Below are positions 1 through 12,498 of a DNA stretch of 12,965 nt, one piece after another. The stretch lies in contig CP070751.1 in NCBI GenBank assembly GCA_020348445.1, positions 2,520,497-2,533,461 on the forward strand, given 5' to 3'. The number at the start of each line of letters is the position of its first letter. Within the stretch, counting starts at the first letter, position 1. The stretch comes from Thermoplasmata archaeon (GTDB lineage: Archaea > Thermoplasmatota > Thermoplasmata > GCA-020350865). The notes under the pieces were generated by a model. It was given only the letters and a program-made list of their open reading frames with translations, did not search any database and had not been told where the DNA came from. Made by a program: the position numbers and the translations under genes.

Positions 1-395
1 CTTTTACTTTTTTAGCTTCCTCGATTTCGCTCTTAAGCTTTTCAAGCTCCTCATCTCTTGATTTTAAGGTTTCCTCTCCAGCTTTCAGGCTTTCCTCAAG
101 CTCAGCGATCTTCTCACTCTTCTCTTTCACCTTCGAATCCAGCTCGCTGACCTTTTCAGATTCTGCTGCCACTTTTACTTTTTTAGCTTCCTCGATTTCG
201 CTCTTAAGCTTTTCAAGCTCCTCATCTCTTGATTTTAAGGTTTCCTCTCCAGCTTTAAGGCTTTCTTCAAGCTCTGAGATTTTATCGCTCTGCTCTTTGA
301 TCCTTGAATCCAGCTCACTGACCTTTTCAGATTCTACAACCTCTTCTACCTTCTTTTTTTCCTCGATCTCAAGCTTAAGCTCTTCAAACTCCTTT
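1..395. repeat. 171-nt (57-aa) intragenic tandem repeat: two near-complete copies plus a degenerate partial third, possibly continuing off the window
   Basis: cttttacttttttagcttcctcgatttcgctcttaagcttttcaagctcctcatctcttgattttaaggtttcctctccagcttt starts at 1 and again at 172. A diverged copy (cttctaccttctttttttcctcgatctcaagcttaagctcttcaaactcc) starts at 343. Confidence 0.92.
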
Positions 396-832
396 TCTTT
401 TACTACAAGCTCGCTTTCTCTCTTTGTAAGTTCTTCAGCTCGCCCTGACAATTCTTTCTCCTTGGATTCAAGATCAGCTTTTCCTTTTTCAAGTTCTTCA
501 GCCCGTCCAGTCACTTCCTTTTCCTTGGATTCAAGATCAGCTTTGCCTTTTTCAAGTTCTTCTGTCCGCTCTGATAACTCCCTTTCCCTTGCTGAAATTT
601 CCTCCTCCCTTCTATCCAGATCTTTAGTTTTTTCTGTTATCTTTACTTCTTTTACCTTTGTTTCTTCCTCAGAAACCTGCGGCTCCTCCTTTATCAACTG
701 ATCCAATTCTTGCTCTTGCGTAATTGTCTCGTTTTCAGTGGGAGTTTCCTTTTCAGGTTCTGGCTTTGCTTCTGCTTCCCCCTCTGAACCTGCCTCCTCC
801 CTCTTTGCTCTTGCCTTGTCTCTTAATCCCAT
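1..832 (-). CDS. Glu/Lys-rich coiled-coil protein with internal 21-aa and 57-aa tandem repeats (3' end beyond the left edge; not in the ORF track)
   Basis: Manual translation from ATG at 832: MGLRDKARAKREEAGSEGEAEAKPEPEKETPTENETITQEQELDQLIKEEPQVSEE...DLDRREEEISARERELSERTEELEKGKADLESKEKE...AAESEKVSELDSKVKEKSEKIAELEESLKAGEETLKSRDEELEKLKSEIEEAKKVK. No stop in 277 codons. GAGGT SD just upstream, 13 nt after the TAA of the 846-2285 gene. The Ser/Phe-rich + strand ORFs here are its antisense shadow. Confidence 0.92.
   Translation of the reverse strand, partial: MGLRDKARAKREEAGSEGEAEAKPEPEKETPTENETITQEQELDQLIKEEPQVSEEETKVKEVKITEKTKDLDRREEEISARERELSERTEELEKGKADLESKEKEVTGRAEELEKGKADLESKEKELSGRAEELTKRESELVVKEKEFEELKLEIEEKKKVEEVVESEKVSELDSRIKEQSDKISELEESLKAGEETLKSRDEELEKLKSEIEEAKKVKVAAESEKVSELDSKVKEKSEKIAELEESLKAGEETLKSRDEELEKLKSEIEEAKKVK
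429..617. repeat. 63-nt (21-aa, three-heptad) intragenic tandem repeat, about 3 copies
   Basis: agttcttc recurs at 429, 492 and 555. Copies 1-2 share ccttggattcaagatcagcttt. The unit encodes ELEKGKADLESKEKE(L/V)(S/T)GRAE. Confidence 0.88.
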
Positions 833-845
833 TAACCGACCTCGT

Positions 846-2285
846 TTACAATTTGTACTTCTCAAGAACCTTCTCGTAGAGGAGATAATCATTGGATTTT
901 GCGAACTTGTCAACGACCTCCTCCGGCAACAATTCAAGGAGGTCGTCTAGAATCTTCAATATCTTTCTCGTTTCCTCGTCGACGTTGAATCCAGGCCCAA
1001 CTTCCTTTAACTTTTCTATCTCTTTATCCTTTTCGATAATCATCGCTTTCAATTCCTCTAGCTTACTTGCGACGGTATTCAGTTCTTTTTCCTTTTCCTC
1101 GAGGTTATTCTCCAGATTCTTGATATCATTATCGAGGCTATCGATTTTCTGCATGTCTTTCTCGGCCTCGATCACCTCATCCTTCATCTTGAAAAGATCA
1201 GCCTGAAACTGTTTCTGTGCGGCAAGCCATTCCTCCTTAAGAGTCTCATTTGACTTGGTAGAGTCCACATTTGCTTGGGCTTGTGAATTCCTATTTGACT
1301 CAATCTCACTCTCCCATGTTTTTAGCTCCTCTTGCCTTGTCTCAAGATCTTTTTGGCTTCGTAGGATTTTTTCCTCTATTGCTCTTATTTCGTTTTCTCT
1401 GCTTTTGAGATCCAAGAATCTATGGCTTAGTTCCTCTTCTCTTCTATCCAGAGCTTCTTCCCTACCCCTTAATTTGTCTTTTTGCTTCTTTCTCCTCTCT
1501 ACTTCCTTTTGGAAAGCATCGACCCTTTTTTTCAGGTCTGCCTCTATCCTGAGAAGTTCGTTTTGATGAGCCCCTAAGATACTTCTGTAAGCCCCCCCTA
1601 TCATTAGAATGTTGGATTCATAAGATATCATGGCCTGCTTCTTCTTTTGTAGTATTTTTATCCTCCTCTCCAGGTGATTGCGCGCATCTTCATTTTCTTT
1701 CCCTTCCCCCCCCTCCAATTTTTTTAGTTCTTCCATTTTATCGTTTATCTCTTTATCTATGATGTTCATGTTGGCTACATTTCGTTCCAACAGGGTCTCG
1801 AAGGGTTTTCCAAGCTTCATAAGCTGTTTTCTGCGTACCTCAAAGTCCTCTTTTTCCATTGAGGTCTCATCTATATCCTTGATATGGTCCTCAATGGTTT
1901 CGTCTGGCTCTATTGTTGCTATGGATTCTAGAACCTTCATTGCCCTTTCTCTTTCTTGAACATCTTCCTCAGTATCGGGCGAGGCAACATCCCAGGACTT
2001 GGCCCAGCTCATCACTTTCACAAGAAATTCCTCATCCTCCTTTGCTAACTGCGTTGTTACGGGTTGCCCAGCCTCATTTGGATTTTCAGCCACCTTCTCA
2101 TTACATATGGGACATACATTGGCCTCCATACTGATCAAAGTCTCGCACGAGGGACAAGACTTGGCCTCCATCTCACCATCAAGCATGGTATCGCAGCTTT
2201 CACAAAACGTAGCATTTGGCTCAATTGTCTGATAACAATTGGAACATGCACACTTACCAGTGCTTAAACGTAGTTTAACTCCCAT
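846..2285 (-). CDS. Double zinc-ribbon (DZR-like) N-terminus plus long coiled-coil protein, 479 aa
   Basis: Four CxxC pairs in the first ~61 aa (CSNC, CESC, CPSC, CPIC), then a long E/K/R-rich heptad region, ending in a compact helical segment (DEETRKILKILDDLLELLPEEVVDKFAKSNDYLLYEKVLEKYKL). Confidence 0.88.
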   Translation of the reverse strand: MGVKLRLSTGKCACSNCYQTIEPNATFCESCDTMLDGEMEAKSCPSCETLISMEANVCPICNEKVAENPNEAGQPVTTQLAKEDEEFLVKVMSWAKSWDVASPDTEEDVQERERAMKVLESIATIEPDETIEDHIKDIDETSMEKEDFEVRRKQLMKLGKPFETLLERNVANMNIIDKEINDKMEELKKLEGGEGKENEDARNHLERRIKILQKKKQAMISYESNILMIGGAYRSILGAHQNELLRIEADLKKRVDAFQKEVERRKKQKDKLRGREEALDRREEELSHRFLDLKSRENEIRAIEEKILRSQKDLETRQEELKTWESEIESNRNSQAQANVDSTKSNETLKEEWLAAQKQFQADLFKMKDEVIEAEKDMQKIDSLDNDIKNLENNLEEKEKELNTVASKLEELKAMIIEKDKEIEKLKEVGPGFNVDEETRKILKILDDLLELLPEEVVDKFAKSNDYLLYEKVLEKYKL

Positions 2286-4227: not shown

Positions 4228-4962
4228 ATGGAATTGAAAATTGGATGCTGCGGGTTTGCCAGGGGAAGGAAGAATTACCACAAGAAATTCGATTTGGTCG
4301 AGGTTCAGAACACTTTTTACATGCCTCCCAAATCTGAGACTGCAAGGCAATGGAAAATGGCGGCACCCCCCAATTTCGAGTTTTTGGTCAAGGCCTGGCA
4401 GCTTATTACCCATTCTCCCAAAAGTCCCACTTACAGAAGAGCCAAGATCATGATTGAAAAGGATAAACAGGACCGATATGGCCTTTTTAGACCCACGAAG
4501 GAGGTTCTCGATGCCTGGATTAAAACCCTTGAAATATGCGAAGTATTGAAGGCCAAGATCGTGGTATTTCAATGTCCAGCAAGCTTTAGACCTACAAAAG
4601 AGAACATCAAGAACATGAAGGTTTTTTTCTCTTCAATTGAAAGGGGTGCAATGGATATCGCCTGGGAGCCTAGGGGAGACTGGCCTTCGGATGTGATTTT
4701 GGACATATGCCTCGATTTCAAGTTAATACACTGTGTTGATCCCTTCAAAGACATGCCTCTCACCCAACAAAAGGCCTACTTCAGGCTTCACGGCTCACCT
4801 CCTGGCAAGACAATGTACAATTACAGATACACAAAATCGGATCTCCAATTATTGAAAAAGAAATGCTCAGGCTTTGACGAGGTCTATTGTATGTTCAACA
4901 ATGTTTTTATGTATGATAATGCACTTGAGTTCATGGATATAATGGGGACTCAGCCCCGATAG
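4228..4962 (+). CDS. DUF72 (YecE/UPF0759-like) TIM-barrel protein, 244 aa
   Basis: IGCCGF start, VEVQNTFY, F.F.VKAWQ.ITH, FQCPASF, WEPRG.W, VDPF and YFRLHG. GAGGT SD 7 nt upstream. 15 nt after the radical SAM stop. Confidence 0.92.
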   Translation: MELKIGCCGFARGRKNYHKKFDLVEVQNTFYMPPKSETARQWKMAAPPNFEFLVKAWQLITHSPKSPTYRRAKIMIEKDKQDRYGLFRPTKEVLDAWIKTLEICEVLKAKIVVFQCPASFRPTKENIKNMKVFFSSIERGAMDIAWEPRGDWPSDVILDICLDFKLIHCVDPFKDMPLTQQKAYFRLHGSPPGKTMYNYRYTKSDLQLLKKKCSGFDEVYCMFNNVFMYDNALEFMDIMGTQPR

Positions 4963-6008
4963 GCACCCACAATGGGAATCTCGGAGCCACATTTTTTACA
5001 TTTCTTATCCTCTGTGAGCTGATATTTGGTAACGCTGTGTCCATACCTTTTAATAACTGTCTCTTTGCATTTTGGACAGTAGGTGTTCTCGTATTCATGT
5101 CCCAGGACGTTCCCAAGATACGGATATAAAACACCCTCTTTCTTGGCCTTCTCATAGGCCATTTCAAGTTTCTCGATTTTTGTGGCGGGATTGTGAAATT
5201 CATATGATGGATGATATCTTGTGAAGTGCAGAGGAGCTTCTTTATCTAAATATTTCAATTGATTATTAATAATATAATCTATACAATCCTCATCATCGTT
5301 CACATCTGTAATCAGCAGGTTCACTATTTCAACATGAAGGCCCATTTTCCTTGCAAATTGTGCGTTTTTCCATATCTTATCCACATCCACATCCCTGCAG
5401 TATTTATCGTAGACCTCCTTGTCTCCCTTCATATCTATTTTTAGGCCATCCAAGCCCGCTAAAGCTAGCATCTTAAGGGCTTCTTGGGTCTGATACCCGT
5501 TTGAGACGAAGCAGTTGAAAAGGCCTTTTTCCTTGGCCAGGGGGAAAACCTCAAGGCAGTACTCGAAAAGCAGTGTGGGCTCCTGGAAGCTCACGCAGAG
5601 GCCCGAATCCCCGTATTTAAGGGCCATATCCACCATTTTTTGGGGAGGAACATAATTACCTTCTTTTGGCTTAGGCTCGGCTCTGGAGAGGTGAAAATTC
5701 TGGCACCAGGGGCAGCGGAAGTTGCAGGAGAATGTGGAGAAGGTCAGGGCTGTGGAGCCTGGGTAATAGTGAAAGAAGGGCTTGATTTCGATTGGTCTGC
5801 TTTCCAGGGCGCTGATATCTCCAAATGTGAGGGTGTATAGTTTTCCCTGGATGTTTGCTTTTGTCTTGCAGAAGCCTTTTCGACCTGGGGAGATTTCGCA
5901 TTTTCTTTCGCAGACCCCGCATCTTACTTTGTCGTTTGCTAGTTTTTCGAAAAGGGGAGAGGGTTTTACAGTATCATATTGCAGGTATTCTTCTGTAATG
6001 GGAGGGAT
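4950..6008 (-). CDS. amrS: AmmeMemoRadiSam-type radical SAM enzyme (TIGR04337-like), about 352 aa, non-canonical start (ATC proposed); the track shows only the C-terminal 228 aa
   Basis: The frame of the 5636 Met is open upstream to TGA at 6033-6035 and encodes IPPITEEYLQYDTVKPSPLFEKLANDKVRCGVCERKCEISPGRKGFCKTKANIQGKLYTLTFGDISALESRPIEIKPFFHYYPGSTALTFSTFSCNFRCPWCQNFHLS. The SAM motif CNFRCPWC is at 5703-5726. Downstream motifs: EPT, LHFTRYHPSY, YLGNV, NTYCPKC. GGAGG at 6016-6020. Confidence 0.85.
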   Translation of the reverse strand: MPPITEEYLQYDTVKPSPLFEKLANDKVRCGVCERKCEISPGRKGFCKTKANIQGKLYTLTFGDISALESRPIEIKPFFHYYPGSTALTFSTFSCNFRCPWCQNFHLSRAEPKPKEGNYVPPQKMVDMALKYGDSGLCVSFQEPTLLFEYCLEVFPLAKEKGLFNCFVSNGYQTQEALKMLALAGLDGLKIDMKGDKEVYDKYCRDVDVDKIWKNAQFARKMGLHVEIVNLLITDVNDDEDCIDYIINNQLKYLDKEAPLHFTRYHPSYEFHNPATKIEKLEMAYEKAKKEGVLYPYLGNVLGHEYENTYCPKCKETVIKRYGHSVTKYQLTEDKKCKKCGSEIPIVGAYRG

Positions 6009-6043
6009 AAGAGGGCCTCCTTGTGATTTAAGTCATCAAGGTA

Positions 6044-9000
6044 TTATTTCCTATTCTTTTTTTTCCTTGATTTTTTGGAATAAACAAAAAAGATTGCAAT
6101 TATGCTGATGGTTGGGATGAGAATGTCCTGGAATTCGGGGAGGGTAAGATCACCCCAAGTTGAGGGATCGGTATCACTTGGGGTACTGGAATCAGGCCAC
6201 CAATCTCCGGTATCAGCATCCTCATCATAAACATATACTGCGAAACCAACTGTTTTATCATACAGTGGAGACGAACCAAAAGCTTCCTCTAAATAGATTT
6301 TAAATTCATAGGTAATATCAGAATCACCACTATCAAGACTTGATGCCGAATCTTGGCCTGCATTTCCAGTAAATACTCCATCATTCCACGCTCCACTTGA
6401 AACCCCATAGTCAGTGAGGGTGTCAGGGCCTGTGGTGTCCAAGCTTTGCCATTTAAAATCCTGCCCATCATCAAGGACTGTATCATGGAGGTGGTCGGTC
6501 TCAAACATGACCTCACAATAATCTCCAGAAGCTTCGGTTCCATCGTCGTTTCTTTTCACCATAATATATAACCAAGTACCGTCTTGCATAACCCAGACAT
6601 CGATATTTCCAGAAGTGTATGAATCGGCATCATCCCATTCACTTCCAGTAGTTAAGGCGCCATCTATTGTTGGTGGACTGCTTGTTGGTAGGGAGGTAAG
6701 TGCAGTAGTGGTACCTCTTGTTCCTCTTTTTGCAGGAAGGGTGATTCTCATCTTACCATCCTTTAAATCCAAAAACCTTGTTCTCGTATTCCTATCATTC
6801 GAATAATCCTTATTCTTATTGCTCCAATCCGTCGTCCTAATCAAATAACTGAAATTGCTATGTAATCCCATGGCATCTGAATCCACGCCTATCTCCATTT
6901 GGGAGAAATCGATTTCAGCCTCGACACCCAAAATCAAGTCTGTCCAGGCCCCTGAATCCTCAGTTAAAGCAGTGTACTTCTTAAACTCCCTTTCTACAAT
7001 GCTGCCCTCCTTACCCTTTACTACTATAAGATATTCAGCCCCTAATGAGATTTTACCCTCTGAATATCCAGTTGCTGAGTTATTGTCAGAATCTACGAAA
7101 ACATGGACTGTATCCAATCCACTGGCCTTTGATATCTGTTGAGAAGGACCTATATACACACGTACCTCCTTTCCCCTGAATCCCTCAGGAAAATTTGAAG
7201 GAAGGGTTGTGGTCAACCACATATCATCCCCATCAGGGTAATCCCGTATACCATCGGAATCCACGTCCTGGTCCTCGTATTTATCATCAACAAAATCGTT
7301 ATCAAAATCATTGGGATGCGGATCAATAGAATCCACTACTGTATCCCTATCACTGTCCACCCCACCCCTCGCTTGTGGTCCCACGTATTTCTGATTGTTA
7401 ATAGATGGCACTGATTTTCCTGCCAGCATCTCGCCATTTACATTAAAATAGAAAAACAGTTTGTCTGGCTCAGTGTATGAGGCATTATAGTTCCATATAT
7501 CGACATTTACGTTGTCCACATCGTTGATGGAATCCTGCAAAACAGATGTTTTATCCCAATCTCCAAATGCACCATCAATAATAATTTCATTGGGTGAATT
7601 GACATAAACATATTTGATTTTACCAGTGGATAGAAAAGCAACACCAGATTCCACTACCACATCATCCTTATTAGCTATTCTGAAGCCCACGGATTTTCCC
7701 CGTAGGCTCTGGGTGTTTGCATATATTACGACCGAGGCATAGTCAGCTACTTCCTTGTCGATTTGAAAAGTTGCAGAATTACCTACAAAATGTGCAGATG
7801 CAGAAAAATGTCCTTGCATTTGCAGCTGGACAGCGGCAGCGTTACTAGGTTTGGTGACTGTTATGGTTTTTAGCCTCACCTTTTGATTTAGGCTGTGTAG
7901 ATTCAACTCCAGAATATGTTGATTTGGATTTGGGAATACGATATCATCCAATTTTGTGGAACTCTGGCTTATTGATAGAACCCCGCCGATATTTGTGGCA
8001 ATCGTATCTGAGAAATCCTCGTAACCCTGAAAATCCTGGGTATGGAAGTAGACCTCCACAGGCTGTGATTTCATCATACCAATGGTAGAACGAGGGATTC
8101 CTGCTTCCAGTTCATCACCAGAGACAACACTTGCTACTTCCTCCCTCTTTTGAAAGTCAAACCAATTATGCTGATCTGGGGAGTCGAACTCGTACAGAAG
8201 GGAGGTAAGCACATTACCCTCCCTTCCATATATCTGAACCATATAATCTGCACCAGTTCCTCTTACAAAATAACCTGTGCTTGAATCACCATCCAAATCA
8301 ATGAATATATGGATGGTTTCCACATGACCTTCCAAGTCGCCTTCCAGAATCTTCCCTTTTACCTTGAGATTGAAAAATATGTTACCCTCGGCTTCTTTTA
8401 CTCCATATTCTGTGATATCGATATTCTCAATTGGAGTATCCCAGACTTCATCCTCATAGCCAACAATATCCTTCCAATCAGAAAAATCACCGTCCACCTC
8501 CATGGAGGGCTCAGATTCAGATAATTTTATCTGCAAATAGGGAACTAAAATAAGAAGTAATATAATCACAGGTATTATGATGAACTTCCAATTGCTGCTT
8601 TTTTTATCCAGATATCCTCTTTTTCTGTCAATGCCATTTGTAAATCCATTGCCATTTGTGATTCCGTTTGTGATTCCAATTCTTATATCTTTTAATCCGT
8701 TTGTTAATCCATTTGTTCGGCCATTTGTAAGCCCCCTTCTCGCCATAGCCAGGCCGTTTGTTAGACCATTTGTTAATCCATTTGTGAGACCATTGACTGC
8801 TCCTCTTCCAACCCTTTTAAATTCACGGGGTGTGATTCCCTCCTTTTTCTTTGAAATCCTGGAAAAAACCGTAATCTGTTCGGTCTCTTTTGGTTTTTTG
8901 GTGTCTGGGACATGATCCAATAAACCTTCTTCTTCTTCATCAGAAATTTCAGCCCCAGTAAAATATCTGATTAGATCTTGCTCCTCCTCTGGTTTTTTAG

Positions 9001-9148
9001 GGCCCCTCTCTTTGGGGGATTTCATTTTACAGATTACTTCATGAATTTTCTTTTCTTGGTTGGTATGAAACGAGCGGTTACAATACTGGCAAGCATATTT
9101 ATCAGTTTTTTCTGGTTTCTCCCCCGTGCTTTTTTTTGGCAATTGCAA
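6044..9148 (-). CDS. Large membrane/surface protein: C2HC zinc finger, GLTNG repeats, TM helix, two homologous acidic beta domains (DOMON/CBM9-like by resemblance) with a Ca-binding-like insert, a third IDG domain, and a PEF-CTERM-like tail, 1034 aa
   Basis: CQYC-x12-H-x3-C at aa 20-40. (L/I/F/R)TNG repeats at aa 118-172. Hydrophobic WKFIIIPVIILLLILVPYL at aa 187-205. VDGDFSDW, IDGAFGDW and IDGALTTGSEW domain starts. C-terminal PEF + hydrophobic + KKSRKKKNRK. Start is TTG (9148 or 9142). Confidence 0.9.
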   Translation of the reverse strand: MQLPKKSTGEKPEKTDKYACQYCNRSFHTNQEKKIHEVICKMKSPKERGPKKPEEEQDLIRYFTGAEISDEEEEGLLDHVPDTKKPKETEQITVFSRISKKKEGITPREFKRVGRGAVNGLTNGLTNGLTNGLAMARRGLTNGRTNGLTNGLKDIRIGITNGITNGNGFTNGIDRKRGYLDKKSSNWKFIIIPVIILLLILVPYLQIKLSESEPSMEVDGDFSDWKDIVGYEDEVWDTPIENIDITEYGVKEAEGNIFFNLKVKGKILEGDLEGHVETIHIFIDLDGDSSTGYFVRGTGADYMVQIYGREGNVLTSLLYEFDSPDQHNWFDFQKREEVASVVSGDELEAGIPRSTIGMMKSQPVEVYFHTQDFQGYEDFSDTIATNIGGVLSISQSSTKLDDIVFPNPNQHILELNLHSLNQKVRLKTITVTKPSNAAAVQLQMQGHFSASAHFVGNSATFQIDKEVADYASVVIYANTQSLRGKSVGFRIANKDDVVVESGVAFLSTGKIKYVYVNSPNEIIIDGAFGDWDKTSVLQDSINDVDNVNVDIWNYNASYTEPDKLFFYFNVNGEMLAGKSVPSINNQKYVGPQARGGVDSDRDTVVDSIDPHPNDFDNDFVDDKYEDQDVDSDGIRDYPDGDDMWLTTTLPSNFPEGFRGKEVRVYIGPSQQISKASGLDTVHVFVDSDNNSATGYSEGKISLGAEYLIVVKGKEGSIVEREFKKYTALTEDSGAWTDLILGVEAEIDFSQMEIGVDSDAMGLHSNFSYLIRTTDWSNKNKDYSNDRNTRTRFLDLKDGKMRITLPAKRGTRGTTTALTSLPTSSPPTIDGALTTGSEWDDADSYTSGNIDVWVMQDGTWLYIMVKRNDDGTEASGDYCEVMFETDHLHDTVLDDGQDFKWQSLDTTGPDTLTDYGVSSGAWNDGVFTGNAGQDSASSLDSGDSDITYEFKIYLEEAFGSSPLYDKTVGFAVYVYDEDADTGDWWPDSSTPSDTDPSTWGDLTLPEFQDILIPTISIIAIFFVYSKKSRKKKNRK
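6047..6139 (-). other. PEF-CTERM-like archaeosortase sorting signal
   Basis: The last 31 aa are PEFQDILIPTISIIAIFFVYSKKSRKKKNRK: PEF motif, TM segment, basic cluster. This is the tripartite layout of PEF-CTERM (archaeosortase C targets). Confidence 0.75.
8633..8797 (-). repeat. 12-nt (4-aa) degenerate xTNG repeat tract (GLTNG repeats)
   Basis: Encodes VNGLTNGLTNGLTNGLAMARRGLTNGRTNGLTNGLKDIRIGITNGITNGNGFTNG, with 9 TNG and 11 NG units. DNA units such as ccatttgttaat, ccatttgtgaga and ccgtttgttaga differ at synonymous sites. Confidence 0.93.
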
Positions 9149-9356
9149 TCCCCTGCCTTCACAATGTCAGTTTGCAATACGTGTATGAATTTTACGGCCT
9201 AAATATTTTTGAAAATAATATACTAGTCGAATTATAAATAATTATGCACAATCCGCCGAAATTCGCCTCTCAGGGCCCAAATCTATCGGTAAATGCTCAA
9301 AAACAAAATTTTAATAATTGCTCAGTCATATAGGACTACTATTGGAGAACTAAAGC
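9149..9356. promoter_or_regulatory. AT-rich divergent intergenic promoter region (surface protein / S8 protease)
   Basis: 208-bp gap between divergent starts. TATA-like TAAATATTTT (about 9200-9210), TTATAAATA (9232-9240) and TTTAATAA (about 9310-9317). GGAG SD at 9344-9347 before ATG 9357. Confidence 0.6.
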
Positions 9357-11348
9357 ATGGAACTATCGAAAAATATTGTATTGATATTGACCATTCTGTT
9401 GATAACATGTGCATTGACCGATTCCACAGGTTCACCTTCAGAGGATACAAACAACGAAAAGGAGGATGAGGCGCCAAAGTGGTGGGAAAACTGGTATCGG
9501 GATTCAAATCACAATAAAATCGACGATCTGATCGAGGATCTGGAGCCGTGGGAGAAAATCGGGATTTTCATAAATTACGAATGCCATCCTGAAGAGGAGG
9601 ACATAGAAAGACTCTCTTCGTTTGATTTAGATGTAAAATATGTTTATAACTATATTGATGTTATATGCGCTCGAAATGTTGTTGTTTTTGATGTACCTAA
9701 GATATCTGAATTACCTCGTGTAGTTATGGTTAAAATCGAGCCTAAGATCTATCCCGCCCTAGATGTAAGTGCAAGGGCTATTAAGGCCAGGGAATCTGAT
9801 CTATATTCTCCATATACAGCTTTTGACTTGGGCTTTACTGGAGATGACATCTCCATTGCTATTCTTGATACAGGCGTAGATGATGGTGGTGCGCTACCAA
9901 ACCAACATCATGAATCTCTGGATGACCTAGATGATAATCCTAGCACAACGGACCCAAAGTTTAAAGCTGGCGTAGATTTGACACAGGAAGAGAGTGTTTT
10001 AGCGCCCCGAGACGGCAGTTTCAATCCTGATGACACCCATAGTCACGGAACACATTGTGCCGGTGTTGCCATGGGTACCGGAGGTGAAACTGGGGGTGGT
10101 CAGCACATAGGTGTGGCACCACAGGCTAGATTGATAGATGTAAGGGTCGGAGAGGTCTGGGGCGGCAATGCCGGTGATTCCATAGCAGGTATTGAATGGT
10201 GTATCCAGCATAAAAATGAGTTTAATATTCGCGTTTTGAGTTGTAGTTTTGGCAGTAGATTCGGTGAAAGCGATGGTACGGATGAGGAATCTCAAACTGT
10301 TAATAATGCTGCGGATGCAGGATTGATAGTGGTGGCAGCCATGGGAAACGATGGAGAGAACCGCGTTACGGCTCCTGCTGCTTCAGACAAAGCTATTGCA
10401 GTTGGCTCTGTAGATGACATGGGCACAGTAGACAGAAGTGATGACACATTATCTGATTTCTCAAATACCGGTCCTAGGCAAGATGATGGCGATGATGACC
10501 ACATAGATGAATTGAAACCCGACGTAGTTGCTTATGGTGATGATATTACAGCAGCCCAAGCAAATACTAATTCAGGTACTGTTACATACTCGGGAACCTC
10601 AATGTCAACACCGCACGTAGCAGGTGTTGTAGCACTGATTCTGCATGCCAACTCCGAATTGACTCCTGAGCAGGTAAAGAAGGTTCTCCGTGTAACTGCT
10701 GAACCTAGAGGTGAACCTTCATATCCAGATTTAGATCCCAAATACAACACGCATTATGGATGGGGTATAGTAGATGCTGGTAAGGCAGTTGATATGGCTG
10801 CTGGTTTTAGGGATCTAACAATCAGTATAGATCATCCATCAGAAGATACAATTGTCAGTGGAACAATTGAGATAATGGGCTCGGCCTCTGTTATTATGGG
10901 TGGTGGTAGTGTAGGTTCGGTGGAGGTCTCTATCGATGATATTAACTTTCAGAGTGAAGTTCTAACAGCAGAGGGCACCACAGAGTGGAGTGTATCCTGG
11001 AATACGGCAGGATATGATGGGCCCCGGACGATATATGCGAAGGCGACTAGCGGCGAATATTCGGCCATAGCCTCTATTGATTTGATAGTTGACAACTCAG
11101 TTGAATATAATGGAGATGGAGGTCAGGAAGGAGACGAGGGCCCTCCTACAATTAATCTTGGATTTATGAGGGTCAGTATATATGCAGCAGCAGCGTTTAT
11201 AGGGATCATCGCATTTATTATCGTGGCAATTGTTGCAGCCGTGGTCCTCAGAAGGAGAAGAATGTACAGGGAGCTTCTTGCTGCAAGGCAGGCTCAGCAG
11301 GGCCAAGAGGTGGTTGTAGTAGAACAATATAAAAAGGGCTTGAGGTGA
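9357..11348 (+). CDS. Membrane-anchored subtilisin-like serine protease (peptidase S8) with signal peptide, propeptide, Ig-like domain and C-terminal TM, 663 aa
   Basis: ILDTG (D171), HGTHCAG (H230), AMGN (oxyanion N331) and GTSMSTPHVAG (S415). N-terminal hydrophobic signal. Ig-like ISIDHPSEDTIVSGTIEIMGSA...WSVSWNT. TM YAAAAFIGIIAFIIVAIVAAVVL followed by RRRR. Confidence 0.95.
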   Translation: MELSKNIVLILTILLITCALTDSTGSPSEDTNNEKEDEAPKWWENWYRDSNHNKIDDLIEDLEPWEKIGIFINYECHPEEEDIERLSSFDLDVKYVYNYIDVICARNVVVFDVPKISELPRVVMVKIEPKIYPALDVSARAIKARESDLYSPYTAFDLGFTGDDISIAILDTGVDDGGALPNQHHESLDDLDDNPSTTDPKFKAGVDLTQEESVLAPRDGSFNPDDTHSHGTHCAGVAMGTGGETGGGQHIGVAPQARLIDVRVGEVWGGNAGDSIAGIEWCIQHKNEFNIRVLSCSFGSRFGESDGTDEESQTVNNAADAGLIVVAAMGNDGENRVTAPAASDKAIAVGSVDDMGTVDRSDDTLSDFSNTGPRQDDGDDDHIDELKPDVVAYGDDITAAQANTNSGTVTYSGTSMSTPHVAGVVALILHANSELTPEQVKKVLRVTAEPRGEPSYPDLDPKYNTHYGWGIVDAGKAVDMAAGFRDLTISIDHPSEDTIVSGTIEIMGSASVIMGGGSVGSVEVSIDDINFQSEVLTAEGTTEWSVSWNTAGYDGPRTIYAKATSGEYSAIASIDLIVDNSVEYNGDGGQEGDEGPPTINLGFMRVSIYAAAAFIGIIAFIIVAIVAAVVLRRRRMYRELLAARQAQQGQEVVVVEQYKKGLR

Positions 11349-11352
11349 TGCA

Positions 11353-12498
11353 ATGCGCCCTCTCAGCTATTCTTCTATCTCAACATATATCGAGTGCCCA
11401 CTAAAATATAAACTCAAGTACATCGATGATTTAAAAGAGAAGCCAAAACCGTATCTTTCATTTGGCAGCTCTTTACATGATGCGCTGCAGTTCATGTATT
11501 CGTTCCGTCCCCCTCCTCCAAGCCTGGATGCTGTTTTAAAGTACTACGAGGAAAACTGGATTTCCGAGGGTTATGCAAATTACGAGGAGGAAGAGGGATA
11601 TTTCTCTTATGGTAAAGATATTTTGCGAGCCTTCTACATTACGAACATCAAGAAATTTAAACCACCTGTTGCTGTTGAATACAAATTCGATATCGAAATC
11701 GAGGGTGTGCCTGTCACGGGTTTTATAGACAGAATCGACAAGGTGGATGAAAACAAGGCCGAGATTATCGATTATAAATCAGGTAAGAACATCTTTGATA
11801 AATCCCATGTTGAGGAGAACGAGCAATTGACGATGTACCAGCTGGCAGTGGAGGATTCAGTGGGTCTTTCTGTTGGAAAACTCACACTCTATCATCTGCC
11901 TTCCCAGACTCCTGTGAGTGTAGGGGCTCGCGATCCAAAAAAAATCGAGAAGCTGAAAAAGAAAGTCAAAGAAGTATCAGAGAATATCGCAAATGGTGAA
12001 TTCCCAGCTAAAAAAGGCAGGTTCTGCCCCTGTGATTTTCCAGAGCACTGTCCTTATTACAGACATCTTTATTTAAAGGAAGAGGAAGTAAAAAAGGAAG
12101 TTACCAAGGTAAATATTCAAAAGACAATAGAGGAATACAGCGAACTAAAAGAAAAGGAGAGGGAGTTAAAGGATAAAATGAAGGTCTTGGCAGAGAAGAT
12201 ACATGTATATTGCGAGGAAAAGGGCCTTGCTCGGGTATTTGGGGACGAGCATGTTGTGACCAGGACAACATCTGAAAGAAAGGGATTTGACGAGGATAAA
12301 TTAAAGGAATTACTTGAACCCAAGGGCCTCTGGGAGAGGCTGCTTTGCTATGACGATGCATTAACAAAAGAGCTTCTTGATAGTGATGAGATAGATGATA
12401 CCCTGAAGAATGAGATAAGAAAATTAGAAGAAGTTAAAAAAACGATTCACCAGTTGCGTGTTAGGGAGCGAAAGGAAGAGAATGTGAATTCTTATTGA
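11353..12498 (+). CDS. PD-(D/E)XK RecB-family/Cas4-like nuclease (PDDEXK_1-like) with Fe-S-staple-type cysteines and a ~140-aa C-terminal extension, 381 aa
   Basis: LSYSSISTYIECPLKYKL start, GFIDRID, IIDYKSG and QLTMY (RecB QxxxY). Cys15 plus C225/C227/C233. GAGGTGA SD overlaps the S8 stop codon. Confidence 0.92.
   Translation: MRPLSYSSISTYIECPLKYKLKYIDDLKEKPKPYLSFGSSLHDALQFMYSFRPPPPSLDAVLKYYEENWISEGYANYEEEEGYFSYGKDILRAFYITNIKKFKPPVAVEYKFDIEIEGVPVTGFIDRIDKVDENKAEIIDYKSGKNIFDKSHVEENEQLTMYQLAVEDSVGLSVGKLTLYHLPSQTPVSVGARDPKKIEKLKKKVKEVSENIANGEFPAKKGRFCPCDFPEHCPYYRHLYLKEEEVKKEVTKVNIQKTIEEYSELKEKERELKDKMKVLAEKIHVYCEEKGLARVFGDEHVVTRTTSERKGFDEDKLKELLEPKGLWERLLCYDDALTKELLDSDEIDDTLKNEIRKLEEVKKTIHQLRVRERKEENVNSY

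Follow-up and report, generated by a model that had tools for sequence, protein, structure and literature searches.

The window analysed here is a stretch of 12,965 nucleotides from a Thermoplasmata archaeon (contig CP070751.1 of assembly GCA_020348445.1, positions 2,520,497 to 2,533,461 of the forward strand). Its minus strand carries a gene for a predicted surface protein, P0001, in which a cytoplasmic zinc finger and a G-x-T-N (GxTN) repeat tract are joined through a transmembrane (TM) helix to a large ectodomain that ends in a PEF-type sorting tail. Judged by its sequence, the gene is the minimal member of a large Thermoplasmatota surface-protein family. The order of its parts (head, tract, TM helix, ectodomain, tail) can be regarded as secure at the level of sequence and structure prediction. 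The protein is best explained as a surface protein that binds glycans and has a tether at each end, while its cytoplasmic head, together with the GxTN/TM module, would link it to partners inside the cell; this explanation is given somewhat better than an even chance. A role as a sensor or receptor would be plausible.

Apart from two-component and chemotaxis systems, little is known about how signals at the archaeal cell surface reach the cytoplasm. The present family is widespread, and in it a single, highly conserved GxTN tract connects lectin-like ectodomains with zinc fingers, KaiC-like ATPases or tetratricopeptide repeats (TPR), which makes it a concrete candidate for such surface-to-inside signalling. 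The present member, with its 1032 residues, one finger and four ectodomain domains, is the most tractable for expression, topology, structure and binding work.

Gene start and translation of the N-terminal region

The minus-strand open reading frame (ORF) at 6044-9148 encodes 1034 amino acids (aa) without an internal stop. Residues are numbered throughout according to this frame, which begins with the TTG at 9148 given in the ORF list. The ORF itself holds, whereas its exact start does not: the TTG at 9142 is probably the true start rather than the TTG at 9148, because of its spacing from a Shine-Dalgarno-like element, the aligned start of a relative and the beginnings of two database records. 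In the same-genus relative G001 (locus L004), GGAGGT is followed after 7 nt by TTG-CCT-CAG-AAA, which aligns with TTG-CCA-AAA-AAA here. The 103-aa metagenomic fragment P0126, in which the same finger is present, starts with MPTK, and the ESM Atlas record for the protein begins at residue 3. In none of the three loci with readable DNA does an ATG precede the finger, and the earliest ATG of the ORF is codon 42. Because the finger, the repeats and the TM helix are kept in relatives and these loci have no ATG ahead of the finger, the N-terminal region is very probably translated. A scan for bacterial-type promoters and terminators gave counts equal to those of shuffled sequences, with models that do not cover archaeal promoters.

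Membrane topology and the GxTN tract

The first-pass annotation, a reading of the DNA letters and ORF translations, had described a C-x2-C-x12-H-x3-C finger and GLTNG repeats ahead of a TM helix with basic residues on its N-terminal side, and no N-terminal signal peptide. All of these features are found again. The translation contains the finger at aa 20-40 and, within aa 122-172, nine TNG units; its N-terminal end has no hydrophobic character, and the first TM helix comes only after the finger and the repeats. The 15 residues before this helix include five basic and two acidic ones (net +3), and the 15 after it include no basic and five acidic ones (net -5). The N-terminus is therefore predicted to be cytoplasmic (N-in/C-out), following the positive-inside rule. 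The doubly anchored layout with a cytoplasmic finger, also proposed in that annotation, is kept in relatives. The neighbouring subtilase has an ordinary signal peptide, so the organism does use them, and their absence is specific to this gene.

No region of the family is better conserved than the GxTN tract. In a 60-sequence alignment (A1), it has a mean of 2.95 bits per column, compared with 1.3-2.3 for ectodomain segments, and its G, T and N are 80-100% conserved. The repeat has a DNA period of 12 nt with matches of only 80-84%; therefore, it is selection at the peptide level, rather than recent slippage, that maintains its units. The region aa 101-187 has a net charge of +11. A short helix motif in the preceding acidic linker, LIRYFTG (aa 56-63), is conserved in the paralog and in P0126.

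The TM helix is also conserved in A1 (W187 59%, K188 75%, P193 63%, P203 86%). A conserved TM helix next to a near-invariant cytoplasmic repeat favours specific contacts over a generic anchor. No cleavage-type motif follows the helix: columns 208-216 carry 0.6-1.9 bits, and these 8-10 residues are poorly conserved.

The zinc finger head

In the finger, Tyr18 and Phe27 occupy classical positions, the fourth ligand is Cys, and Lys/Arg replaces the usual core Leu. The AlphaFold2 (AF2) model contains strands at 18-19 and 26-27 and a helix at 30-43, with a predicted local distance difference test (pLDDT) score of ~87, which corresponds to a predicted beta-beta-alpha fold. Pfam C2H2 models reach at best 12.5-13.3 bits on the finger, below their cut-offs of 22.6-27. 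A phmmer search of aa 3-45 against all PDB sequences gave 46 matches, every one of them a classical C2H2 finger. The best are ZBTB38 (E 5.9e-6) and Gfi-1 (2.4e-4), and PRDM9 and Zif268 are also among them. The classical type suggested in the first-pass annotation thus agrees with both the sequence matches and the predicted fold. A search of aa 3-112 against 1.8 billion representatives returned seven matches, including the ortholog fragment P0126. Four of the seven are multi-stretch matches, and the two that were inspected (P0130, P0132) are C2H2 arrays with HTGEKP-type linkers; one match covers the linker at aa 43-68 instead of the finger, and there is one further match.

On this evidence the finger is best placed with the classical C2H2 fingers, as a variant whose last ligand is Cys. 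It shares with classical fingers (PF00096; ZBTB38 6e94, Zif268 1aay) the Y-x-C-x2-C-x3-F-x8-H-x3 spacing and the predicted fold. It differs from them in the Cys ligand, in the Lys/Arg at the core Leu position, in being a single finger instead of an array, in scoring below every Pfam cut-off, and in being fused to a membrane protein in an archaeon. Archaea rarely have fingers of this classical type, and the present one would be such a case, located on a membrane protein.

Five sequences with an overall identity of only ~50% retain the finger pattern together with its flanks: P0001, P0003, P0126, the own-genome paralog C1:1540767-1544411 and G001, which carries an extra zinc ribbon (CPDC...CPDC) in addition to the finger. 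A hidden Markov model (HMM) built from these five fingers locates a further copy, the third of this genome, on a 656-aa soluble protein (C1:1190620-1192587, plus strand). There the finger (CRFCGRIFKNERARKTHEHHC) heads an acidic coiled-coil protein with a compact C-terminal domain and without a TM helix. Since a copy heads a soluble coiled-coil protein, the finger is, on sequence evidence, a portable N-terminal head in this organism.

The string T-G-E-K-P (aa 8-12, 9112-9126 on the minus strand) stands five residues before the finger and equals the canonical linker of tandem eukaryotic C2H2 fingers. It aligns to that linker in the PDB matches, and it may be due to chance.

The ectodomain

The ectodomain (aa 209-1003, ~795 aa) is strongly acidic, with 141 Asp/Glu against 58 Lys/Arg. 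AF2 on alignment A1 models aa 210-790 with pLDDT >90, and aa 791-988 are of low confidence. With the whole model as query, Foldseek matches nothing more specific than multi-sandwich proteins such as integrin legs and adhesins, all with TM-scores <0.1; per-domain VIA structural alignments were used in its place. In these models the ectodomain would consist of four beta-sandwich domains in a row: DOMON/CBM9-like (D1), cohesin-like (D2) and two CBM9-like domains (D3 and D4).

D1 starts with IDGxFxDW and contains a FIDxDxxxxTGY...GADY loop; W225, D286, G292 and Y293 are invariant. Its VIA matches include 2ivf_C, the gamma subunit of ethylbenzene dehydrogenase (EBDH; Z 10.8, rmsd 3.6, 164 aa), and 7b04_C from nitrite oxidoreductase (NxrC; Z 9.6). 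D2 aligns with a CLIPPER sandwich at Z 9.7 and with cohesins at Z ~7.7; these middling scores indicate the fold class only. D3 carries an inserted Asp-rich loop of ~80 aa (about aa 583-660). D1 and D3 are, by their sequences, internal duplicates: BLASTP aligns them collinearly with E values of 8e-8 and 5e-6. D4 gives a clear CBM9 match, aligning with 1i82_A at Z 18.2 (rmsd 2.6, 165/189 aa, 21% identity) over a background of Z ~7. It is common to only about 14 of 120 listed homologs; the homolog P0100 has a Pfam CBM9_1 match in the equivalent C-terminal domain (E 2.2e-6). Neither P0001 nor its parts match Pfam CBM9_1 (PF06452), and no Pfam or NCBIfam model covers the repeat tract or D1-D3, which form a three-domain pedestal.

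The folds of D4, D3 and D1 thus resemble CBM9 of Thermotoga maritima Xyn10A (1i82) and the DOMON domains of EBDH gamma (2ivf_C) and NxrC (7b04_C). They differ from these in that P0001 lacks a Pfam match, D3 has its Asp-rich insert, and no enzyme domain is attached.

Between D3 and D4 lies a low-confidence linker with a G-T-R-G motif. The pattern [GASP][TS]R[GAS] occurs 11-33 aa past the end of D3 in 32 of the 55 family sequences with a locatable D3 end, compared with 9/416 control windows in the pedestal and 7/302 in the distal part, a ~25-fold enrichment at the boundary. In the sequences of the whole family, G-T-R-G is a marker of the switch from the conserved pedestal to variable distal domains. 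The linker could be a processing site or a hinge. A cut at this site would leave each piece with one anchor, and the presence of two anchors would then make sense.

The PEF tail and the archaeosortase

The acidic ectodomain is followed by the PEF-TM-basic tail described in the first-pass annotation. PEF stands at aa 1004, Pro1012 lies in the hydrophobic helix, eight of the last 11 residues are basic, and AF2 predicts a helix at 1005-1033; all three parts of the tripartite signal are present. Three paralogs pass the TIGR03024 cut-off (23.4-31.2 bits). The genome holds archaeosortase A (ArtA) and one second, ArtC-like gene, on which the exo_archaeo signature reaches 43.9 bits and passes its cut-off of 23. 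According to a passage of PMC5244752, which cites Haft, Payne & Selengut (2012), archaeosortase C recognises PEF-CTERM.

The family and an ArtC-like archaeosortase tend to occur in the same genomes. Of 41 related ones, 27 hold both the family and a sortase homolog, two hold the family only (these are 74% and 57% complete), none holds the sortase only, and 12 hold neither. Within this genome, PEF tails are found almost only on this family, since a pattern search locates the internal TM helix and the pedestal on 15 of the 18 ORFs with a PEF-type tail. Consequently, a cleavable signal peptide with a single C-terminal anchor, which had been taken as the norm for archaeosortase substrates, is not the local norm. 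The likeness to the PEF-CTERM/archaeosortase C system (TIGR03024/TIGR03762) lies in the same tripartite tail and in the candidate ArtC-like archaeosortase that is encoded in the genome and co-occurs with the family. The differences are scores below the cut-offs, the lack of an N-terminal signal peptide and an internal N-in anchor after ~185 cytoplasmic residues, which is how PEF-tailed proteins of this genome are usually built. In existing descriptions, archaeosortase substrates have a signal peptide and one C-terminal anchor, whereas PEF is found here almost only on proteins that would also span the membrane close to their N-terminus. The presence of PEF on proteins with cytoplasmic modules changes the view of what the sorting system handles.

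Only three PEF-tailed ORFs do not belong to the family. Among them, C1:1054974-1059098 (plus strand) is the best PEF-CTERM scorer of the genome (31.2 bits). It lacks the pedestal, and its only other TM helix is at aa 73-91.

Family, paralogs and distribution

The first-pass annotation knew of no characterised system with this architecture. The survey of homologs does not support the idea of a singular arrangement, but reveals a large family of paralogs whose heads are interchangeable, the finger being only one of many types. A database search with the protein gives 276 matches, nearly all in metagenome-assembled genomes of Thermoplasmata/Thermoplasmatota. Essentially all 120 listed homologs show the same order: a variable N-terminal part, a GxTN cluster with 4-26 TNG units, one TM helix, and IDGxFxDW ~10-15 residues further on. 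Most complete homologs end in a PEF/TM/Arg-rich tail. The heads are of cytoplasmic domain types and include KaiC-like ATPases with DUF7504, TPR, double zinc ribbons and helix-hairpin-helix domains, and P0061 and P0110 have no head, with repeats and TM helix alone. P0001 has the family features throughout: a GxTN cluster right before a single TM helix with the W-K...P...P pattern, and a three-domain pedestal whose IDGxFxDW start lies within ~15 aa of that helix. Its conserved core is aa 115-780, with 30-53% identity to homologs. The other concern attached to the first-pass annotation, that the finger and repeats might not be conserved in homologs, is not borne out.

The organism's own genome (5.16 Mb, one contig) contains about 20 family ORFs. 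The KaiC-, TPR- and zinc-ribbon-headed giant paralogs share with P0001 the GxTN tract, the TM helix, the three-domain pedestal and the PEF tail, with 35-53% identity over aa 115-780. P0001 differs from them in being the shortest (1032 aa, compared with 1055-4377 aa for the others), in its single C2HC finger head and in having one distal CBM9-like domain. Family matches occur in 29 of 41 related genomes of the class and in 25 of 151 genomes sampled across the phylum, with the highest copy numbers in the largest genomes. A scan of metagenome contigs with P0001 gave no confirmed relative. In the literature on GLTNG, PEF-CTERM or archaeosortase in Thermoplasmata, no description of the family was found, nor any paper that deals with its repeat tract, its pedestal or its anchoring at both ends.

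Locus L004 of G001 (G001:C1:2997966-3002837, minus strand) keeps the finger, repeats, TM helix, pedestal and divergent subtilase. Past a masked run of N, SxDxGxTW (Asp-box/BNR-like) repeats in another frame stand in place of the CBM9-like D4. This replacement suggests, on the sequences compared, that domains distal to the pedestal are swapped.

Proposed mechanism and alternative explanations

In the favoured explanation, whose layout is strongly supported by sequence and structure prediction, ~185 cytoplasmic residues comprise the C2HC finger, an acidic disordered linker and the conserved GxTN tract. The proline-bearing TM helix acts as an uncleaved signal anchor, the four predicted beta-sandwich domains lie outside, and the chain ends in the PEF/TM/basic sorting tail. 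Processing by archaeosortase A exchanges the C-terminal helix of its substrates for a lipid. The ArtC-like archaeosortase would process the present tail, probably in the same manner, which would leave the ectodomain with a tether at each end. Glycans on particles or other cells may be bound by the lectin-like domains, and the GxTN/TM module with the head would connect these outer domains with partners in the cytoplasm, either as a scaffold or for outside-in signalling. As a small head, the finger may dock nucleic acids or proteins and so correspond to the zinc ribbons, TPR and KaiC-like domains that head the paralogs. Processing may also take place at the conserved G-T-R-G linker and yield, from one precursor, two pieces that each have their own anchor.

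A more ambitious form of this proposal, regarded as improbable, is an outside-in signalling family in which GxTN is a new docking or assembly motif on the cytoplasmic side next to the membrane, a cut at G-T-R-G gives two anchored subunits, and the present minimal member is a tethered finger regulator, released or clustered when ligand binds its CBM9-like domains. If true, archaea would have a counterpart of Notch/integrin-type receptors that is derived from an archaeosortase substrate. ToxR/CadC bitopic regulators and the eukaryotic cleaved receptors Notch and integrin alpha chains offer an analogy: a cytoplasmic head of a nucleic-acid-binding type, one TM helix and an extracytoplasmic beta-sandwich sensor or leg. 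The analogy is one of function only, with no homology, and the integrin alpha legs that top the Foldseek results have the very low TM-scores given above. The type of head differs, a second anchor is present here, and any DNA binding or cleavage is putative.

Several points weigh against the favoured explanation. CBM9 and DOMON folds also bind heme or nothing, and fold likeness is no function. A single finger with Lys at the core-Leu position may be only a structural zinc knot. AF2 gives no confident structure for aa 44-184, the GxTN tract included, and no partner of the tract is known. The window contains no KaiC or regulator gene, and the sequencing runs that contain the stretch are sediment metagenome DNA only, with no RNA run listed. 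The HMM searches for a PEF-CTERM tail and an archaeosortase C gene, proposed in the first-pass annotation, succeeded in part. An ArtC-like gene was found, but its best model, TIGR03762, gives 53.8 bits, below the cut-off of 100, and TIGR03024 gives 13.8 bits on the tail in the protein scan and 20.4 in the genome scan, both below the 23-bit cut-off. The 41 genomes are kin, so their co-occurrence counts are not independent; in four genomes, the weak sortase matches cover only the shared exosortase catalytic core and may be other archaeosortases.

The alternative that survives best, although it is considered rather unlikely, is that the protein has only a structural role in the envelope or as an adhesin. 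In that case, the head and the GxTN tract would be no more than a topogenic plug and cytoplasmic anchor that forces N-in insertion of the very large acidic ectodomain, and the finger a stabilising zinc knot with no part in signalling or nucleic-acid binding. This would agree with the adhesin-like distal domains of about 20 paralogs, the headless members P0061 and P0110, and the basic tract, whose charge fits the positive-inside rule. It would also agree with the occurrence of the same finger on a soluble coiled-coil protein and, likewise, of a zinc ribbon on the product of the neighbouring gene 846-2285. However, a topogenic signal needs charge only, not near-invariant G, T and N over dozens of residues; KaiC-like ATPase heads would be costly as a plug, and the conserved W/K/P pattern of the TM helix suggests specific contacts.

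A membrane-tethered transcription factor is a decidedly doubtful explanation. Notch, SREBP and RsiV are models of regulated proteolysis. By analogy, a ligand or shedding, for example through a cut at G-T-R-G by the subtilase, would be followed by intramembrane cleavage in the proline-bearing TM helix, which would free the finger to bind DNA. This is the strong form of the idea in the first-pass annotation; release or clustering of the finger for signalling is conjectural. The classical C2H2-type finger with its Lys-rich flanks, the conservation of the helix-breaking TM prolines P193 and P203, the conserved basic motif in the exposed linker and the divergent subtilase kept in the same-genus relative all speak for it. 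On the other side, one finger is rarely sequence-specific for DNA, and most heads of the family are not of DNA-binding types, yet they are followed by the same TM helix and tract. Furthermore, the adjacency of a subtilase is not general (1/16 S8 loci, and none at the closest paralog), and no protease is linked to the TM helix.

It is very unlikely that the head, tract and TM helix form a long leader that is cleaved after export, so that the mature protein is held by its C-terminal anchor only. A passage of PMC5244752, citing Haft (2012), describes PEF-CTERM proteins elsewhere as exported surface proteins, and the pedestal starts only about 10-15 residues past the TM helix. Against such a leader stand the lack of a conserved cleavage motif in columns 208-216, the implausibility of leaders of 500-1200 aa with folded ATPase or TPR domains as disposable signals, and the organism's use of normal short signal peptides on other exported proteins. 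Scarcely credible is an annotation artefact, with a downstream start (Met42 or near the TM helix) and an untranslated finger: the lack of an ATG before codon 42 would suit it, but the conservation of the finger and its flanks in five sequences only ~50% identical, the TTG start with a Shine-Dalgarno element kept in the relative, and the position of the family's best-conserved region upstream of the TM helix speak against it, and a start just before that helix, which the first-pass annotation had named as a possible objection, is for practical purposes ruled out.

Feature coordinates and neighbouring genes

Table 1. Positions of the gene, the parts of its product and the neighbouring genes in the window
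Feature	Residues	Position	Strand	Remarks
Gene		6044..9142	(-)	1032 codons from TTG at 9142; stop 6044-6046
Shine-Dalgarno-like AGGGGA		9149..9154	(-)	six bases (9148-9143) between AGGGGA and TTG 9142
C2HC zinc finger, classical beta-beta-alpha type (predicted)	18-40	9029..9097	(-)	Lys-rich flanks; predicted cytoplasmic; AF2 and PDB sequence matches
Acidic linker, predicted disordered	44-103	8840..9019	(-)	pLDDT <50 except helix 56-63; net charge -5
G-x-T-N tetrapeptide repeat tract	116-173	8630..8803	(-)	predicted cytoplasmic; adjoins membrane
Internal signal-anchor TM helix	189-207	8528..8584	(-)	preceded by basic stretch DRKRGYLDKKSSNWK; hydropathy 2.83; AF2 helix 187-210
D1, DOMON/CBM9-like beta-sandwich	212-387	7988..8515	(-)	pLDDT >90; VIA
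D2, cohesin/CLIPPER-like beta-sandwich	389-518	7595..7984	(-)	VIA 9ifr_A Z 9.7, rmsd 3.5, 119 aa
D3, CBM9-like	520-793	6770..7591	(-)	VIA 1i82_A Z 12.0, rmsd 3.4, 154 aa; 1ulv_A Z 10.7
K-R-G-T-R-G motif	807-812	6713..6730	(-)	low-confidence D3-D4 linker
D4, canonical CBM9-like	about 815-1005	6134..6706	(-)	AF2 of aa 780-1034 on alignment A2, pLDDT 79
PEF-CTERM-type tail	1004-1034	6047..6139	(-)	P1004-E-F, hydrophobic 1009-1023, KKSRKKKNRK
Divergent membrane-anchored subtilase		9357..11348	(+)	Peptidase_S8 E 9.5e-50; normal signal peptide and C-terminal TM helix
Stand-alone PD-(D/E)XK / Cas4-like nuclease		11353-12498	(+)	PDDEXK_1 E 2.9e-36; just after subtilase
Radical SAM gene		4950-6035	(-)	directly downstream; frame opens after in-frame TGA 6033-6035, 8 nt below stop 6044-6046
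Coiled-coil gene with N-terminal double zinc ribbon		846-2285	(-)	DZR E 1.6e-8, then ~400 aa charged coiled coil
Second coiled-coil gene		2-937	(-)	adjacent to 846-2285

The divergent subtilase is also present beside the gene of the same-genus relative G001. Of the 16 S8 loci in the genome, one adjoins a family member (this gene) and one lies inside a paralog; the locus of the closest paralog has no subtilase. On these counts, the subtilase was rejected as a general partner of the family. A pairing of subtilase and substrate at this locus is possible, its support being limited to one adjacency conserved in a close relative. The paralog C1:3423525-3430217 (minus strand) has a Peptidase_S8 domain within its ectodomain (S8 match 3426171-3427178), and P0077, a homolog from the database, carries an S8-peptidase annotation and a precomputed PF00082 match. 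A subtilase can therefore be cargo on the pedestal.

In the radical SAM gene, the CNFRCPWC cluster lies upstream of the first ATG/GTG/TTG, and GGAGG at 6016-6020 is not followed by a canonical start. An 83-aa ORF at 5671-5922 is probably no gene, as it has no family match and lies, in another frame, across the region by which the radical SAM gene extends upstream. No CRISPR context of the nuclease is visible in the window, and the nuclease has a long charged helical C-terminal extension. The product of 846-2285 shares a "zinc head plus rod" plan with the finger/coiled-coil protein C1:1190620-1192587.

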